64,000 bases of DNA from positions 16,024-80,023 of the forward strand of contig MQRK01225945.1 of the NCBI GenBank assembly GCA_001938485.1, in the 5' to 3' direction. Shown piece after piece: positions 54,714 to 64,000 of the stretch (its first letter is position 1; each line of letters opens with the position of its first letter). Made by a program: the position numbers and the translations under genes. Origin of the DNA: Girardia tigrina (lineage: Eukaryota). The notes beneath the pieces are model-generated. The model did no database searches, was not told the origin of the DNA, and was given only the letters and a program-made list of their open reading frames with translations.

Positions 54714-55016
54714 TTGATAATAATAGCAACAGATCAGTCGCGTTTCGATTTACAGCTCACTACGTCTATCAATGTGAATATAACCGTTCAAGATGAAAAT
54801 GATGAAATACCCAAACTTTTGAAACCCCATAATTTTTCCATTGCTGAAAACCAACCCTTTATGACTCACATTGGAACTCTTCGAGCTCAAGATAATGATA
54901 TCGGAGTGAACAGTGATGTCAAATTTTCTTTGGTAACAGACACAAATTCAGTTTACTTTATTCTTTCAAAAAATGGTTCCCTTTTTTCCAGACGTAAATT
55001 TGATAGAGAAGAAAAA
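54714..55016 (+). CDS. Protocadherin-like cadherin, internal exon C
   Basis: TTTCAG acceptor and GTAAGT donor, 101 codons. LIIIATD..VQDENDEIP..IAENQP..AQDNDIGVNSDVKFSL..FDREEK. Confidence 0.93.
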
Positions 55017-56494
55017 GTAAGTTTACCGGAACTTGTCTTGACAGTTTAAAGAATATTTTTCGATTATTTTTGCATCATAAATAATTTTTTAAAAAATTCT
55101 AACATAAAATGGTCATATCGAATTTAAGAATATTGAGAGAATTAAATATTAATATTATTTTTTTTTGTATTTGTAAATAATGTGTATTATTTGTAGTGAT
55201 ATCGAAAGATTATCAACAATTAACACTATTTAATATATATAAATATACAGATTAGATACATATAATTTATTTTTAGATTGATATATATATATATATATAT
55301 TATTATAGTGTAATTTTATCACTGAAATTAAATAATGATAATGAAGTGGTGATATTTAATCGTAAGATTTATTAAAAAAGAAATAAACAAAGGAAAATTA
55401 AACTAAAAGTAATTTTTAAAATCACCACACAATAATAATATAATCTCAAATCATGTAACAGTCAGGGATGAAAGAGCATAAATATCATATTTGTCAAACA
55501 ATAATTTATATTATCCAAATCTTAATTGTTTATTGCCACGTAATAATTTTCATTATAAATTTAGTGTATTAAATAATTATGTCTTCATGGCAATATTGAT
55601 TTATTATTTAACATTTAAAATTCGAAATTGGATAATTTCAAATATTAATAATTATTATATAATTATTGGGAGGGAAGGGGTTTGATTCGCACTTGGGGGG
55701 TGATACGGTTTATCATGACGCAGTGCTGATTACCTTGATCCTATGAAAATGGATAAGTGCATATACTCGTTGCATTTAGTGGATGAAATATTGCAATTTA
55801 GAATTCGATAAAATCCAGAAGTATTATTAAGCAATTGAAAAAAATCGCCAAATTCAATGAGTTAATTATTCAAAATGAGACCAAAAATAAAGACATCGAA
55901 AGATTCTTAAACGACAAATTAACAAAATTAAAACACATAAAAATGCCAACTTCAAAAGTGATTTGGCAAAATCCCGAAATCCACACAAGAATCAAACTGA
56001 AAAACGCTCGGCAATTGTACGACTCGTCTGAGCGATCATTGAAAAATCAATTTATCTTATCGTTATTGATTGTTTTTGCAGTTTATTTTAATATTGTCCC
56101 GAAAATCGTCAATATTAATTTGCAATTTTATCAATTATTTTGGAAAACAGTGATAAATTTGATATTTTTATGCTGCTATTTGTATCAGATCAAAAGCAAC
56201 GTTTCTGAATTCCTTAATTTTTTTTAAATAAGTTTTATTGTAATTAAAAACTTTTAATTTTGTGAAAAAATCAATTTGTTTATGAAGATTTGCGAAATTT
56301 CAATATTTGAAAATTATTCTTGTAATATATTTGTTTTAATCGATTAATTTACTAATTAAAATTGGCACAAAGGTTTTTTTTGTAAATGCGAGTCGCCATG
56401 AATTTGTACTTCGGAATTTTAAAAAATTAATAAAATTTGTCGATATCGTAATTTTGTTTTAATATTCTCCGTTTCAAAGTCAACAATATTTAAC

Positions 56495-57049
56495 ATGGAT
56501 CTGACTGATTTACGACGAACGATTAGATTGTGTAAAGAAGGCATAAATTTTGCGGATCAAAATCTCATAAAATTTACCGGTCGTAATTTTGACAAACCGA
56601 TTTCCAATCAATATCTCCGATTTCTCATCAAACATCGAGTGACGACAAACGTACGCGAACCGAGTCCCAATGAAATTAAGAAACCGCGAGGGGTTTCACG
56701 AGACGATTCTCGTCGTAAGGATAATAAAAAATGGGGCTCTAATAATTCTAGCCCGCAACGAAATGATGGTGACCTGAAATGGAGCTCACCTGATTCTAGC
56801 TCTCTTAGGAATGATAATAAATGGGAGCCCGTGTCCATTTCGACAGTGTCGCGGATTGAGATTCGGAGTTTCTCCCCCGGTGAGACTATGAATTTAAGCC
56901 CCCCGCGTACCGCAGATCATCCATCAATGCCACCACGCTACGCCCGCTCTCGCACAACCAGAAGGAAATTTTCTTGTTTCTGCTTTTCTTTTCACTATAA
57001 TGGACTCTTGTTTCACCTTCTGCTTCTCTTCCTCCATATAAATAAATAA
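56495..57049 (+). CDS. Orphan intronless ORF, Arg/Ser/Pro-rich with internal KW-S-x-x-SS-x-x-RND repeats
   Basis: 184-codon open frame in very AT-rich DNA, AACATGG start context and AATAAA at the end. The repeats differ at synonymous positions. Confidence 0.5.
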   Translation: MDLTDLRRTIRLCKEGINFADQNLIKFTGRNFDKPISNQYLRFLIKHRVTTNVREPSPNEIKKPRGVSRDDSRRKDNKKWGSNNSSPQRNDGDLKWSSPDSSSLRNDNKWEPVSISTVSRIEIRSFSPGETMNLSPPRTADHPSMPPRYARSRTTRRKFSCFCFSFHYNGLLFHLLLLFLHINK

Positions 57050-57720
57050 AGTAAAAATCACAAACACTTCATAAAAATGAATAAACAAATATGTATAGCC
57101 ACTGTAAAACGAATATGTATACCACAATACATTTACGGAGATAAATGTATTACTATATAAATAAAATAAATTCTTTTTTGCTGGTCTACAAAAATTATGA
57201 ATGGAATTATTTTGAAACGAGTATTAGAAGAATTTAGATAAGATGATTCAGGATGTTTAATTGATGTCAGTGAATTAGCATAAATAAATAAATCCCTCAT
57301 TCAAATAACTGTGACTATAATTATCCTAGATGTGTTTCTTGGAACATGAGGTAAAAGAAAATCGATTTTCTAGGTGATTGTAGAGAATATAACACTTAAT
57401 CATTCTAAGAGAGTAAAGAGGAAGTATGTTATTGTTTCTACAGAGTACGCGTAAATTGACAAAAACATTAATTTCAGAAAACCTTCTATGTCCGTTCATA
57501 GGTCGAGATCGGCAAAATAATTTTCCATCAAATNNNNNNNNNNNNNNNNNNNNNNNNNNNNNNNNNNNNNNNNNNNNNNNNNNNNNNNNNNNNNNNNNNN
57601 NNNNNNNNNNNNNNNNNNNNNNNNNNNNNNNNNNNNNNNNNNNNNNNNNNNNNNNNNNNNNNNNNNNNNNNNNNNNNNNNNTTACAGTGAAAGTTTTAAA
57701 TATATTTATATATTATATTT

Positions 57721-58047
57721 TTACAGTGGGAACGAATACCGTTCCTCCAAATTAAACGTTTTCCGAAACGTTTTATCATAACAAAACAGCAAATAAAAAT
57801 ATTTCTCCAAAATCGGCATTTTATGCAACAAACAGTTACCTTGTCTTCCGACAAATACATTCATCGAATTCTTTTTAATATCGTAATACGTAAAATTATT
57901 CCGATTCGATTCACACCCTTTTAAGGAACTCAAATGTAATTTTGTCGTTGTTTTCAAATCGACTTGAGTAAAGGAATCGACGGTAAAACTTTCCCAATAT
58001 GCGGATACGTATTCGCCTTGTGAATTATAACCAATAATCCAGTCAGT
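57721..58047 (-). pseudogene. Orphan ORF fragment of about 108 codons
   Basis: The frame extends upstream of the track ORF: TDWIIGYNSQGEYVSAYWESFTVDSFTQVDLKTTTK...FTYYDIKKNSMNVFVGRQGNCLLHKMPILEKYFYLLF. Confidence 0.4.
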
Positions 58048-58367
58048 TTATTAATATCGTTAAATGGATTGATTCGCAGATTTTCTGGTTAATTTAACGC
58101 TTTGTAAATTACCAATTTAAAATGCCAGTGATATATTTTTTATCTTTGTTAAATTGTCAATTGAATAAATTTTAAACACAAATTTAAAAGCCTTTTTTTT
58201 AATGTGAGAAAATATTTATTTTTCCAAACAAAGAATTGTTGTTATTGATTGACATAAAATGGAATTGTGACCTTTACATGCAAAATTTCTTTCATGAAAA
58301 CAAACACACATTAATACGTGACACACCCACATTGACCACGCTAATCATATCACACTCAATACACTAA

Positions 58368-58535
58368 ATTGGTTAATTTCCCATCACCAGAACACAAGAA
58401 TACACACAAATATATTGCGATTGGTTAATTCAAATCAATTTGATTTTTAATCACAATTTCGAATTGATCAACCAAATTCGCTTTCAAACCCAACAGTTTT
58501 ATATAAAAATTGCGCGTAAAAGTCAATTCGAATTA
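58368..58535 (+). promoter_or_regulatory. Possible Pol II promoter
   Basis: Two ATTGGTTAATT (reverse CCAAT) boxes at about 58368 and 58420, TATATAAAA at about 58500, and an Inr-like TCAATT about 25 nt downstream. Confidence 0.3.
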
Positions 58536-59955
58536 ACAAAAAAAAGAACTCAAATTCCAAACACGTACACCATCACGAAACCAAATGAAATTGATGGTTT
58601 AATAACAATTTTATATAAATATATATTTTTTTTATTTGATTTATTTATTTAAATTTCTTATTTATTTTTACTTTTAATTTAAATACTTAATTTAATGATT
58701 TTATTTAATTTTATATTACTCTAATTATTTATTTAAATGGCAAATATTTATTTATTTAATTTATTTCTTTAAAATTTAAAAACTGGCAAAATGTTCGGTC
58801 AATAGAATCAATGTCCGCTTCAAGAGTAAAAAACCGAAATGACGAATATCGGACTGATACTTTCGCAAATTTTACTATTGTTTGTTTTTATTATTATTTT
58901 AGAACCTATTTTTTCTTTTTTATAATGAGTTTTTCAGACAATATAAAACGCATATTGAATAAAATATTATTAAACTGAAATGAACCTTTCTTTACCTCTT
59001 AGTTTGTAGTAAGGTTGCTGGTGTATATAAAGGTTTATAATTTTTGCATAACGAAATTAAAAAAAACAATTTAGATATACAATTGTAGTGATTTTCTTCT
59101 TTAGTATGACTCTTCTTCATTCAGTTTTATATTTTCCTCATCGTGTTAGTGTTATCCTCTTGATAATATTGCTTGCTACACGTTCTTTTCCTTTATTCAG
59201 TCTAGATTTATTTGCAAAATAAAATGCCATTAATAACAAAATTAATTTCAATTGAATGTCCTAAAAAGAAAAAAATGATACAAATCAAGATGCCAAAATA
59301 TTAGAAAATAAATCTAAAGTAACCCTATTTATAGGACATTTATTTTAACAAAATATTGGTAAATGTACAAGGAAATTGATGTTGCAATTTACTTTACTAA
59401 ACGAATATTTCAAGATTAAAAAAGTAAATATAAACTTTTACCAGAAGATATAATGAAGAGGATGAAACCAGACCAAAATTTGTTACACGAGGAGAATAAA
59501 ACATATTTATCGTCAATGAGGTATTAAACATATGTGAATTTCGCCAATCTGACATTGCTACTGGAAACGGTAACTCTGCATCGCAATTTTCCACCACGAT
59601 AATTAATATTTGATCTTAATATTTATTTAAGTCGTATCTTTAAAATCCTTTTCTATTTTTTTAATCTTCTTTGAACCCTTTCAAATATACAGTATAATAA
59701 GAAAATTATTTAGAAAACTCACATTTTGATTATAAATGATCCATCCAATCCCCAGGTAGCCCCATAGACCGGACAGTGGTAACAGTGGTACACATAAGAA
59801 TCAGGAGCTCAGACTCGTTGTGCTGGGTCCATTTTGTAGTTAGATAGTTTGGAGAGTGCATTGAGAATTAATCTTTTTAGATAAAATTCAATAAAGATAA
59901 GGTCGTATTATATATAAATCTAAATAGATGTAACGACTCGACCTGAGCCGTCCCG

Positions 59956-60657
59956 ATGGTAATTATAACTGATATAAAAGTCGGTTTGACAGGTCGCCGG
60001 GTCGACCGTTCCGCTCGTGGGGCGCGCGCGGCACCTCCGACCAGTGCGGACCAAAGTTTCGTAGTGACGATTTTCTTTGGCTCGATTGCCAATGGTGACG
60101 ATCGCTCGGTCTCTTCGGACAAATACAAATTCAATAGAAACTGTTCGTTGCGCAATATCGATTCTTTATCGATCATCTTCGACAACTTCACACAGATTTG
60201 TGGTGGCGAAAATTACCATTTTTTCGCGCAATTAGAATTCATGATTGCTTTATTCGAGCGAGAGACAGATGATTAAGAAATCGAAGAATTGTGTGAAGAC
60301 GCGGACGCGTTTGTCGATCAGATTTCTTTGTGCAAATTCAAACGCAAATTGCGCGATTTTGATATGGTTCCTTCGACGGACAATTTTTGTTTTCGAATGT
60401 ATATTATTTTGTATGCTTGTCGCTTGATTTTTCTGTAAAAAAACGATCGATGACGAGTGGAAAGGGTAAACGAAAAGTTTTTCGGATTTTCATTTTTGAA
60501 AAAGATCTATGGAACTCTGATGGAGCTGATCGATTTGCTGAGATTCTTGAAGGATTTTCGCACATGGGAATTGTCATTTGTGATGACCATTTTAGAATTT
60601 TATTTGATTAATTTTTGAGACAAACGATTTTTGGCATTTTTATTTTTATTAAAATAA
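59956..60657 (+). pseudogene. Decayed orphan gene: one frame of about 230 codons with four in-frame stops
   Basis: The frame continues past the 60276 stop: *EIEELCEDADAFVDQISLCKFKRKLRDFDMVPSTDNFCFRMYIILYACRLIFL*KNDR*RVERVNEKFFGFSFLKKIYGTLMELIDLLRFLKDFRTWELSFVMTILEFYLINF*. Strongly CpG-rich. Confidence 0.45.
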
Positions 60658-61049
60658 GTCAGTAAAACAATATCGTTTTTGTATTGTTTTTTACGTACAT
60701 TATAAAATAATTTTTAACATAAAAAATAACTTTTTGTATTGAAAGAAAAAAAATTTTTACACGATAAAATAAGTATTTTTACAATAAGTATTTTTTAATG
60801 TTTTTGTTGTAAAATGTTGTGGTACACAACAAGTCGTTTTTATTTTCTCAAACACAAAAAACTTCGCTTTTAAAATTATTTTAATCTTCAATTAATTATT
60901 AAAACATTTTCTCAAAGATCTAAAACCAAATGGCTATCAAAAATTGACGATTCCCTTTTACAATGACTTAAATTTAATTCGTTATCAGAAATTACCGTCG
61001 TATTTATCATTCGGTCTCTCTTTGCATTCTCTCTCTTCATACAATTTCG

Positions 61050-61338
61050 AATTTCGATCGCACACATTCACCGACCCTGGCTGTCAGACCCTGGCTGATT
61101 TTGAAAATCAAAGATAATAAAATGTGGCTCGAATAACTCAAGATAATGGGTGTCGAGAAGTTTTTGCTTCTAAAGACAAAACATGGTATCGACGCGGAAT
61201 AGAACAACTTGCAGAACGTTGGGTACAATGTATTGAACATAATGGACTTTATTTCGAATCATAATCTTTATTGTGCGTTGTTTTATGAACATTTTAATTT
61301 TTAATAAAAAGTGCCCCACAACTTATGACTCACCTTAA
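61050..61338 (+). mobile_element. mariner 3' end with right TIR
   Basis: FASKDKTWYRRGIEQLAERWVQCIEHNGLYFES*, then GTGCCCCACAACTTATGACTCACCTTAA|TA. Confidence 0.8.
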
Positions 61339-61343
61339 TATCA

Positions 61344-61667
61344 GAGGCTACCCGTAATATCAACGGTGTATTAGGTGATGGAACTACAAATAAACGTATG
61401 TTACAACGTTGGTTAAAAAAAATTCAAGGAGATGAGACCTTCGAAGATGATGATGGTCGTGGACGGAAACCTGCTATTGAAAATGAAAGTTTTAATCAAA
61501 TTCAAGCACAAAGGTTTGAGAGCTTGCGGAGGAACTAGGTGTCGCGATAGGAACAATTTCAAACCATCTGCGTGACATTGGGAAATCGAAAAAAATGGAT
61601 AAGTGGATTCCATACGAAGTAAATGACAATCAAAAAATGCGTCGTTTTGAGGCATCATCTTCACTTC

Positions 61668-61711: not shown

Positions 61712-62123
61712 TCGATTTGATTTTGAGTCAGTAGAAGGAATATAAATAAATATAATTTGAATATAATAAAAATAAATTTTAATTGCAAACAATAACTGTT
61801 AATATAATGTAATAAATAATTTTTCTGGACGAATAAAAAGAAAAAACTAAAAATAGTTATGTTTATAATTTTATCAATTACCGAAAATATATTATTAGCG
61901 AAAATAAATCATAGAACCAACGATATTTTGTAAAATAAGCAGATAATTTAAAAGTCACTAACAGTTAGTTGTAATGGAATCACAAATTACTTGATATAAA
62001 GTATACAATATATTTAATCGTACTGGATTATTTCGGAGTATAATTATTCCAGAGAGTCAACGCGGTCTTTTTAGTTCTCGATACTTTTTGATACAATGTG
62101 CTCTTGCAAACAGCTTCATAATA

Positions 62124-63569
62124 CAGTGCGTTCAGAAAGTCACTGTGCACTTTTCATTGTCTGGTTTATTTTTAGATAATCAGCGTTGTAGCAGACTTTT
62201 TAAATTCAAATTTCTATGAAATCGAACTATGAAATAGATTCGTGAACAAAAAACATACCTACACACTTTGAACTTGACACTGAGCGTTTTAAATTTTTAA
62301 AAAAAAATATCATTTTGATATTCAATCTAATCATTGACGAAAGTCAATTTATTGCGAAGTTAATTCCAATTGAAAATGGTTTTGTCAATAGAGGAGAGAA
62401 TATTTTTGATTGAACATGTCTTTCGTGCGAATGATGAATACACAGAAGCAGTGAAGGAAAAATTTGCCAAAAAGTTTCCCGCAACAGCAATACCTCATCG
62501 AAATGCAGTNNNNNNNNNNNNNNNNNNNNNNNNNNNNNNNNNNNNNNNNNNNNNNNNNNNNNNNNNNNNNNNNNNNNNNNNNNNNNNNNNNNNNNNNNNN
62601 NNNNNNNNNNNNNNNNNNNNNNNNNNNNNNNNNNNNNNNNNNNNNNNNNNNNNNNNNNNNNNNNNNNNNNNNNNNNNNNNNNNNNNNNNNNGCCGTGAGG
62701 AAAACTTTAAGCTTATATCCATATCGTGTTACTTGTCAACATGAGTTGAAAGACACAGACTTTGAAAAGCGACTCCAGCTTTGTCATTGGTTCAAGGAAA
62801 ATCTGAATGAAGACGACATGCTCGACAAGACATTTTTTCCGATGAAGTGTGGTTTCATTTGTCTGGATATGTGAGTAGCCAAAATTCTCGAGTTTGGTGC
62901 AGTGAAAATCCGCATGAATTTGTTGAGAAGCCTCTGCATTCCGTGAAAGTTGGAGTATGGTGTGTCATGTCCAGGAGGCGTGTAATTGGTCCCATCTTTT
63001 TTACTGAAACCATAACATCAGAAAGGTACTGCAAGGAAATCCTTTCTGCTTTCATCCACCAATTAACTGAAGAAGAACGATCGACTGGCTATTTTCAGCA
63101 GGATGGTGCAACAGCACATACCGCAAACATTTCGCTTCGTTTTTTGAATGAGATCTTCCAGAAGAGAATCATTTCCAAAGGAATTTGGCCGCCAAGATCC
63201 ACAGATCTAAGTGTTTTTGACTTTTACCTGTGGGGAGCAATAAAGCAAAAGGTTTACCGAAACAAACCACAAACTTTGCAAGACCTACGTGATAACATCC
63301 TACACCAAATTGAAGCCATCACCCAAGAGGAAATTCANNNNNNNNNNNNNNNNNNNNNNNNNNNNNNNNNNNNNNNNNNNNNNNNNNNNNNNNNNNNNNN
63401 NNNNNNNNNNNNNNNNNNNNNNNNNNNNNNNNNNNNNNNNNNNNNNNNNNNNGTCATTGTTCTTCACATAAAATTGACTATTCAAAATATTTTGTTATTG
63501 ATTTTTAGAACACAGGATATCGTTCTTGTTTTGAAATTGCAGGTGCACAGTTACTTATTGAACGCACTG
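62124..63569 (+). mobile_element. Full-length rosa/DD41D-like Tc1/mariner transposon (DD38D spacing; two N gaps)
   Basis: TA|CAGTGCGTTCAGAAAGTCACTGTGCAC ... GTGCACAGTTACTTATTGAACGCACTG|TA. Motifs SIEERIFLIE (DUF4817-like HTH), SDEVWFHLSGYVSSQNSRVW, FQQDGATAHT and WPPRSTDLSVFDFYLWG. Confidence 0.95.
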
Positions 63570-64000
63570 TACTATAATAATGGATTTTGTGAAACAAGTG
63601 ACTGATATTTCAGGAGAATATAATCTGTTGAATTGAATCAGTTGATTGAAATAATGAAGTAATGATAAATTGTTTTTCGGTCAATCAAACATCCAGAATA
63701 ATAATTTTCATTCGGTAAAAAATAATGACAATAATAATTTATTCACTGTGAGTAATTAGAATGTAATTATATTTGATTAATATATTAATTATTATTTTAT
63801 TTTCATAATTTGTTTTTTTAAGTAATGTTTTCAGAAGGTTTAATATTTTTAAGTTTTTTTCTAAAATACAGGAATTCTTTCATCTTCATCTGACAATTGT
63901 TTTATTAAATTTGTTGTCAATTTTGTCATATTCTCTGTCCTAAATAAATCGTATATTTTCCAACAACCATTCGACTGTCACTAAATAAACAAAAAACAAG

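Follow-up and report, generated by a model that had tools for sequence, protein, structure and literature searches.

A cadherin intron of Girardia tigrina contains, between 55.7 and 60.7 kb of the window (the whole stretch of 64,000 nucleotides analyzed here), closely spaced, intronless protein-like frames, which raises the question of where these frames come from. All five of them were found at the positions given in a preliminary description of this DNA: the frames 55835-56227 and 56495-57049 of the plus strand are open, the frame 57721-58047 of the minus strand is open and has no ATG, and the plus-strand frames 59363-59602 and 59956-60657 are interrupted by two and four internal stops, respectively. 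The intronic location is supported by the fact that the upstream cadherin exon ends at 55016, while the next cadherin motif found, at contig position ~91,750 (L360:1753), is about 20.7 kb downstream and beyond the window. The excess of CpG was also borne out, with 36.9 CpG per kb (observed/expected ratio of 1.58) in the 55.7-60.7 kb region versus 16.1 per kb (0.99) in positions 1-55,000. This excess is limited to three elements, which have ratios of 1.68, 1.86, and 2.08, as compared to 0.83 and 0.89 in the spacers. The ratio is 1.72 for the coding DNA of the host pinin gene and 1.76 for that of a host ENaC channel gene; since the CpG content of the elements equals the level of host coding DNA, their composition is not foreign, as it had been considered before.

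The data indicate that the region is made up of three adjacent but independent insertions, all of them solo LTRs: E1 and E2 belong to BEL/Pao-type families and E3 to a Ty3/Gypsy family. Their interiors are mosaics of sense host-gene fragments, which were probably captured by RT switching onto co-packaged host RNA. Each of the three insertions is bounded by a 5-bp target-site duplication (TSD), and instead of a single cluster there are three independent repeats, accompanied by further repeats in the spacers (Table 1). The answer was supplied by copies elsewhere in the genome, where relatives of the three LTRs and the host parents of four of the five frames were found.

Table 1. Positions of the cadherin exon, the three LTR elements, and their cargo in the window
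Feature	Position	Strand	Remarks
Cadherin exon upstream of the element-holding intron	54714..55016	+	Pfam Cadherin E=4e-11; AG/GT ends
E1 left target-site duplication GAAGG	55674..55678	+	repeated at 56961-56965
E1 solo LTR, BEL/Pao family, 1282 bp	55679..56960	+	ends match LTRs of full element
E1 left part, putative U3 start	55679..55934	+	common to many copies
Cargo 1, spliced 5′ end (ATG 55943) of unnamed host gene G000:C241485	55925..56202	+	parent comparison
Cargo 2, 5′ UTR and first 65 codons of host pinin gene (G000:C208648)	56443..56689	+	92% identity
Cargo 3, repeat-rich segments from the interior of a host CCCH zinc-finger gene (G000:C177544)	56683..56825	+	86-89%
E1 conserved right part, putative R-U5	56826..56960	+	last 53-90 nt common to most sampled copies
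E2 solo LTR, second BEL/Pao-type family, 1095 bp	57728..58822	-	TSD ACAGT/AGAGT
Cargo 4, internal piece (codons ~270-405) of intact intronless DEG/ENaC channel gene (G000:C17783)	57761..58123	-	79%
E2-family LTR part with the previously noted CCAAT/TATA	58414..58600	.	TATA not conserved
Single-copy frame with two stops in spacer	59363..59602	+	outside the three elements
E3 solo LTR, Ty3/Gypsy family, 926 bp	59906..60831	-	TG...TA ends; TSD GGTCG/AGTCG
Cargo 5, start (ATG ~60590) of unnamed host gene G000:C220713	60076..60593	-	78-81%

BEL/Pao elements are recognized by LTRs with TG...CA ends, a 5-bp TSD, a PBS, a PPT, and the domains DUF1759 gag, RT, Peptidase_A17, integrase, and DUF5641. In the E1 family we found direct-repeat LTRs with TG...CA ends, a 5-bp TSD, a PBS after the 5′ LTR, and a PPT before the 3′ LTR, together with a DUF1759 gag followed by RT, Pao RNase H (Peptidase_A17), integrase, and DUF5641, this domain set being spread over the broken frames of three loci (C21291, C254813, and C227395) with matching gag-pol regions. 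The PBS presumably resembles the complement of initiator-Met tRNA; no tRNA gene was detected by ARAGORN in 30 loci or by Rfam in 2 loci. Different from typical BEL/Pao elements are the LTRs of 0.9-2.4 kb that are conserved only at their ends, the ubiquitin fused ahead of gag, and this putative initiator-Met-like PBS. The left 207 nt of E1, of which the first base is changed from T to G in the window copy, closely match an LTR preceded by a PPT (L125), and sequences matching its right end occur in LTRs that are followed by a PBS and in both LTRs of C254813. A 23-mer from this right end had 227 exact matches, as compared to 0 for the reversed control. Among the 19 E1 units with both ends recognized, 18 had 5-bp duplications (15 perfect and 3 with one mismatch). 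For the majority of the 36 distinct E1 loci drawn from the pattern list, no left end was recognized, and only 1 of the 36 right ends had a PBS, so full elements are rare. One RNA-type contig matches only positions 55859-55934, a part of E1 that may in turn derive from an earlier capture.

The full-length BEL/Pao element C254813 has LTRs of 1856 and 1870 bp with 97.3% identity, the TSD ACACT, a PBS behind a 4-nt spacer, a PPT, RT, Peptidase_A17, and integrase. The same mosaic is present in both of its LTRs, where a frame joins an RRM-like piece (identified by eye), IBR, and NDUFS4. The gag-pol of C227395 is 92-94% identical to that of C254813, but its Cullin-bearing 3′ LTR is common to the two only at the ends, and a third, different LTR interior of 2.4 kb was observed in C226569. 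In this fragmented assembly C254813 was the only element found with paired cargo-bearing LTRs. Direct integration of single LTRs was considered and rejected, as the candidate, C227395, has its own PPT and 3′ LTR.

The relatives of E2 share a PBS-like TGGTG motif after the 3′ end in five of six matches, and at one locus (C236567) the 5′ end of an E2-type LTR is preceded by a BEL integrase C-terminus and a PPT. In 9 of 13 pairings of E2 ends the TSD had at most one mismatch. An E2 element with two LTRs was not found. At the five E2-type loci with the PBS-like motif, there were pieces of Hsp90/ubiquitin or N gaps, or the contig ended, and no BEL pol was detected. The TATA box at ~58500, which had been described as part of a promoter, was absent from all five related LTRs compared. 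A 37-nt difference among E2 copies was rejected as an intron when the copies were compared. For E3, the reference is the full Gypsy element L352, with paired 192-bp LTRs at 96.9% identity, the TSD GTGTT/GTGCT, a PBS, a PPT, and the order RT-RNase H-integrase. The 5′ 78 nt of E3 and of the L352 LTR are alike at 77%, and PBS-bearing E3 copies resemble the L352 internal region over 1.5 kb at 80-82%. In L116/L349, L124, and L321, an E3-type LTR is followed by a PBS and by sequence from the Gypsy gag region; all such copies seen consist of a 5′ LTR, PBS, and gag region, and none has two long cargo-bearing LTRs. A PBS at the opposite end of E3 was rejected, because none of 20 matches had a shared PBS there.

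The majority of copies are single TSD-bounded units, in which the ends are conserved and the middles vary, and the ends of E2 form an imperfect inverted repeat of 10-12 nt, which could also be expected of non-autonomous DNA transposons of Pack-TIR or Pack-MULE type with 5-bp TSDs. These are likewise short TSD-bounded units with conserved ends, which spread host gene fragments and chimeric frames. However, in the portion of the Pack-TIR report considered here, which describes 370 cases from 55 of the 100 animal genomes examined there, they are DNA transposons that have TIRs and copy DNA of the genome, introns included (PMC8277862), while the window units are LTRs of retrotransposons, and their cargo is spliced and sense. 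The same ends occur in our data as direct-repeat LTRs beside PBS, PPT, and gag-pol, they are asymmetric, and no TIRs were found at the window elements. This explanation is very improbable, and for E1 and E3 it is refuted by the full-length LTR elements. A Helitron-like CCAG end and a 3-bp TNA TSD were artefacts of the 5-bp TSD.

The comparison with the rest of the genome showed that the frames are sense pieces of five host genes with intact copies elsewhere, which are the pinin gene, the CCCH zinc-finger gene, the ENaC channel gene, and two unnamed genes. As four of the five frames overlap such pieces, the description of orphan ORFs fails. The plus-strand frame 59956-60657 is an antisense shadow of the minus-strand host frame, which explains why protein searches with it gave no relatives. 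For the remaining frame, in the spacer, no other copy was found and there was no Pfam match with stops read as X; it is possibly a chance frame or an old relic. The parent of the pinin piece matches Pfam Pinin_SDK_memA (E=5e-20) and that of the ENaC piece matches ASC (E=8e-50); the entry for cargo 1 has a weak GPR180-TMEM145 match under the curated cutoff, and the parent of cargo 5 obtained no usable name from Pfam or Atlas. The zinc-finger piece is in frame with the pinin piece, and the ENaC piece has one stop and one frameshift. Private substitutions in the cargo look neutral, with 19 of 56 synonymous in pinin versus 14.8 expected (p=0.13), and 46 of 183 in ENaC versus 41.9 expected (p=0.26). 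Pooled pN/pS values against the parent of 0.46 and 0.35 were rejected as a sign of selection, because they include the parent's branch.

The intronless, CpG-rich frames on both strands could also stem from a decayed endogenous DNA virus, from a Polinton, or from accessory ORFs with a function in a giant retroelement of the Burro kind. Such an origin is now hardly conceivable, because four of five frames have host parents, there are three separate TSD pairs, the masters are normal-sized (~10 kb for BEL/Pao and ~5.7 kb for Gypsy), the cargo shows no sign of selection, and Pfam scans of the window frames and the ORFs of relatives detected no viral hallmark gene (PolB, capsid, or ATPase). The Burro giant Gypsy elements of planarians are also LTR elements with host domains, including ubiquitin-like ones, but as far as the portion of that report considered here goes, their extra domains are located in a 4,900-aa polyprotein or in accessory ORFs of a 25-kb interior (PMC6431247), while here elements of normal size carry non-selected fragments in the LTR. 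Hence, mobile-element cargo in an intron is the part of the preliminary description that stands, while the viral and giant-element parts do not.

The orientation and splicing of the cargo bear on the route of capture. Parent-verified cargo was sense in 6/6 cases, five in the window and a GDP-fucose synthase piece in a related nested unit. When all 123 ORFs of at least 75 aa from 25 E1 loci were scanned with Pfam, host-gene matches were sense in 9 of 10 loci, and the one antisense cargo (L184) adjoins a different LTR-type end facing the opposite way. Five GT-AG introns are precisely absent, two of them in L138 and three in the window, where cargo 1 lacks parental introns of 54 and 80 nt at 56082/3 and 56141/2, and cargo 5 lacks one of 57 nt at 60425/6. 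Both exon junctions of cargo 1 are spanned by a spliced RNA-type contig. In four of the six parent-verified pieces, the first base is at the start codon or a short distance 5′ of it. The starts of the pinin and cargo 1 pieces are 10-16 nt away from the ends of RNA-type contigs, which come from one sample and cannot prove a start. Four RNA-type contig sets of one sample hold transcripts of the parents; no listed RNA-type contig of this sample joins the window mosaic, or the cadherin exon to the mosaic, which says nothing about silence.

The 57-nt intron was compared in 13 distinct E3 copies, of which 10 are without it, two have an inner acceptor, and one (L119) retains it whole. Introns can thus be removed in later cycles, so that a missing intron is no proof of a mature mRNA source, and unspliced RNA or DNA may also have been captured. 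The intron of L119 would indeed fit capture at the DNA level, by gap repair into an LTR with introns lost in later retrotransposition cycles, but it is in frame and could belong to a normal isoform. Together with the strong sense bias, and with the start of pieces near transcript 5′ ends, where the match to the parent stops, this makes a DNA-level route rather unlikely.

If the cargo was captured by RT switching, minus-strand strong-stop DNA, which comprises R-U5 and corresponds to the conserved right end of 50-130 nt, would make the first jump, RT would then hop via microhomology onto host RNAs, often running to their 5′ end, and it would rejoin the RNA of the element immediately 3′ of the PPT, at the conserved left stub. 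The rebuilt LTR would be copied to both element ends, inherited, and re-edited over later cycles, and LTR-LTR recombination would leave a cargo-bearing solo LTR behind. A switch during copying of the putative U3, a label based on PBS/PPT geometry, would place the cargo inside the LTR and not between LTRs. The element would tolerate this cargo as a passenger, since U3 seems to hold no essential promoter. The putative microhomologies at two junctions are short, 6 nt (TAAAAC at the left junction of cargo 1) and ~4 nt. Alternatively, an intronic solo LTR could serve as a terminal exon onto which host 5′ exons are spliced, and the chimeric RNA ending in R could accept the strong-stop DNA. The end of the GDP-fucose synthase cargo coincides precisely with its exon-3 donor, which fits such read-through splicing better than a random hop, and AG precedes one copy of the next piece; moreover, cargo is often a 5′ end and the window LTRs are themselves intronic. 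However, the ends of the pinin and ENaC pieces lie within exons, and no donor was seen at the ends of cargo 1 and cargo 5. As an incidental observation, no LTR was noticed in the introns of the parents. Hence, read-through is unlikely as the explanation, and it may work alongside RT switching rather than replace it.

The elements resemble LTR-mediated retrocopies, which, according to the portions of the reports considered here, are also partial, intronless, often 3′-truncated mRNA pieces, form multi-gene chimeras, involve Pao and Gypsy elements, and undergo further copying rounds (Tan et al. 2016, PMC5131818; PMC5470649). Template switching at microsimilarities was proposed for them, all the Drosophila retrocopies in the portion considered replace part of the internal ORFs between two LTRs, and the word "solo" was found nowhere in the main text as considered here (Tan et al. 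2016, PMC5131818). In contrast, the cargo described here is located within the LTR, is doubled at both ends while gag-pol stays, survives as solo LTRs in hundreds of copies, and differs in almost every lineage. Hundreds of maize LTR retrotransposons with host gene fragments are described in the part of that report considered here, none of them, under the conditions of that study, with fragments of more than one gene (PMC2774510), while E1 holds pieces of several genes. In the passages of the open literature on related systems that were covered here, no description of cargo inside LTRs was found, and an earlier one may exist elsewhere.

These observations shift gene capture from the interior of an LTR element, where it is crippling, into the LTR, so that an element which keeps gag-pol can carry and spread the cargo. 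In E3, a single captured intron occurs in three splice states, a record of repeated passage through RNA, and the families provide a natural system for testing how frequently RT jumps onto cellular RNA during strand transfer. They are also a warning for annotation, because such scraps pass as orphan genes or paralogues. A broader, still tentative proposal, which may well prove wrong, is that template switching onto host RNA is routine in LTR synthesis here, in BEL/Pao and Gypsy elements alike. U3 would then be a hypervariable cassette with which nearly every lineage samples the transcriptome, and solo LTRs would have seeded the genome with thousands of multi-gene chimeras. If this was the case, the chimeras could be raw material for new genes, the host-like LTRs could be decoys against piRNA silencing, and the LTR cargo could yield piRNAs against host genes.

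DNA searches of the G. tigrina genome (an AT-rich animal assembly of 1.43 Gb in 255,254 contigs) showed that matches to the region are many and dispersed, with ~70–92% identity, and that they end at fixed points, which define the borders of three units, E1, E2, and E3. Each of them has its own 5-bp duplication, and thus what the preliminary description had treated as a single cluster consists of three insertions.

Positions of the three inserted units and their flanking duplications
Unit	Position	Strand	5-bp duplication
E1	55679-56960		GAAGG/GAAGG
E2	57728-58822	minus	ACAGT/AGAGT
E3	59906-60831	minus	GGTCG/AGTCG

Target-site duplications (TSDs) were also detected in 18 of 19 E1 relatives with both ends recognized (perfect in 15); the left end was unrecognized in most of the 36 distinct E1 loci sampled from the pattern list. 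Among E2 relatives, 9/13 automatic pairings had at most one TSD mismatch, and a TSD was present in 6/9 inspected E3 copies. The E1 TSDs form a loose palindrome, with a purine at position 1 in 25/35 and a pyrimidine at position 5 in 24/35. Loose palindromic target sites are a trait of retroviral-type integrases. The spacers contain three more small repeat families (56966-57160, 57186-57533, and 59730-59900). Additional mariner-like scraps lie at ~60900-61660, and a Tc1/mariner-like element at 62118-63575 has 33-nt TIRs that are 88% complementary and a DDE-like frame (62811-63338).

The five frames described previously were all found in the sequence, and their placement in a cadherin intron agrees with a cadherin exon that ends at 55016, the next such motif found being ~20.7 kb farther downstream. 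The reported CpG excess is real (2.3-fold per kb over the rest of the window), but it is not foreign, because its level is that of host coding DNA and it is restricted to E1, E2, and E3. The proposed TATA box is not conserved.

The comparison with relatives identified E1 and E2 (BEL/Pao-type) and E3 (Ty3/Gypsy) as solo LTRs. The right-end 23-mer of E1 has 227 exact matches in the genome (control, 0), some of which have an 18-nt primer binding site (PBS) downstream of a 4-nt spacer, and in a genome-wide PBS search (first 30 loci of 509 matches) E1-type ends precede ubiquitin and a DUF1759 gag. Contig C254813 contains a whole element with the TSD ACACT, LTRs 97.3% identical, PBS, reverse transcriptase (RT), Peptidase_A17, integrase, and polypurine tract (PPT); of the 11 candidate contigs retrieved, it alone has paired LTRs, and gaps or contig ends interrupt the majority of them. 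The left 207 nt of E1 in the window closely match a PPT-preceded LTR (L125), while its right end aligns with PBS-followed LTR ends. At the E2 3′ end a PBS-like motif is common to 5/6 matches, and one E2 relative lies directly behind a BEL integrase and PPT; no E2 element with paired LTRs was found. Four E3 copies are followed by a Leu-like PBS, and two of these four have 1.5 kb of internal sequence in common with a full Gypsy element, whose 192-bp LTRs start with the same sequence as E3.

The PBS of the E1-type ends (15-mer, 509 exact matches) is also located behind several other LTR end types (L219-L248), and some frames upstream of those ends are host-like (phosphatase-like, SH3-like, and methyltransferase-like, by eye), which makes it likely that additional cargo families exist beyond those studied. 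In several BEL/Pao-type lineages (L237, L246, L239, L276, and L281) one or two ubiquitin domains lie between the PBS and gag, and E2-type elements have an Hsp90 piece there too. Some LTR ends continue as longer sequences that resemble reverse complements of tRNAs, and 3′ ends of tRNA-like type also occur where there is no LTR (L247, L319, and L230); ARAGORN called no tRNA genes at the 30 loci analyzed, a set without L319.

The cargo, that is, the pieces of host genes, is located within the LTR and turns over rapidly. The two LTRs of C254813 have their mosaic in common, which consists of an RRM-like piece (by eye), IBR, and NDUFS4. The element in C227395 is 92–94% identical to it in gag-pol, but its 3′ LTR is alike at the ends only and contains a Cullin piece, while C226569 has a third, different LTR interior. 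The C227395 element (L262:6302 to L263:4279) is an 8-kb TSD-bounded recombinant that joins a left stub from one LTR subtype directly to gag and has a different 3′ LTR. Among the 36 E1 loci, wide sharing is limited to the last 53–90 nt. A scan of every ORF of ≥75 aa in 25 of these loci (123 ORFs), with transposon matches in 3 loci excluded, demonstrated a sense bias: sense host pieces were found in 9 loci (kinase, TFIIA-gamma, NDUFS4, SAICAR synthetase, PRC1, Ras, and CH), and the one antisense piece, a phosphatase, adjoins another LTR-type end. Nested within an E1 copy is a fourth unit type (L138:1604-3019, G000:C180939) with spliced GDP-fucose synthase exons 1–3, ending at a splice donor; this type has TG/TA...CCTCA ends, a 5-bp TSD, a DEAD-box helicase-like piece, and at least 400 candidate matches.

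Intact host parents were found for the captured frames, which are frequently 5′ pieces; introns of the parents are missing from some of them. Positions 55925-56202 correspond to the 5′ end of the C241485 gene and lack two GT-AG introns of 54 and 80 nt; an RNA-type contig takes the same two junctions. In the 56495 frame, the pinin 5′ end (92%) is joined to pieces from a CCCH zinc-finger gene (86–89%). The parent of 57761-58123, located by a protein search, is an intact intronless DEG/ENaC frame of 687 aa (Pfam ASC, E=8e-50), and one E2 copy has a weak match to Pfam ASC; intronless DEG/ENaC frames in the genome number at least eight, all distinct and 570–706 aa long (L089-L100), with two more loci largely masked. 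The E3 cargo is the start of the C220713 gene on the minus strand, without its 57-nt GT-AG intron, and the plus-strand frame reported there is its antisense. Hence, the supposed orphans are host gene pieces, except 59363-59602, for which no relative was found in this genome or Pfam, and the interpretation as a virus or new genes was rejected in favor of three solo LTRs with pieces likely captured from host RNA.

The cargo showed no sign of function in the stops, frameshifts, and private substitutions of the copies compared. The ENaC cargo has 21 stops and 21 frameshifting indels in 23 copies, while the pinin cargo has 1 stop and no frameshifting indels in 12 copies (1 private stop versus 3.4 expected, a weak hint that the frame is retained); private substitutions are in line with the neutral expectation.

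From established LTR replication we infer that the conserved right end would be R-U5 and the left stub the start of U3 beside the PPT. During U3 copying RT would hop onto a host RNA and then back, and later recombination would leave solo LTRs behind. In 13 copies of E3 the captured intron is retained once, and an inner acceptor is used twice, which counts against a simple mature mRNA origin; judging from these copies, the first capture could have been from pre-mRNA or DNA instead. Three splice states of this intron (kept, inner acceptor, and fully spliced) are fixed in copies L119, L118, and L407, which shows repeated passage through RNA. Some cargo may also have been supplied by read-through splicing into an intronic LTR.

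The closest known system is LTR-mediated retroposition, in which a fragment of mRNA takes the place of internal ORFs and lies between two LTRs (PMC5131818); this replacement, its defining feature, is absent here. Pack-TIRs are similar in appearance but are DNA transposons (PMC8277862), and Burro keeps host domains in its polyprotein (PMC6431247), while the cargo described here is in the LTR. No published mosaics inside LTRs were met in the literature searched, the coverage of which was limited. The components of these units are ordinary, while the site and the scale of the capture are unusual.
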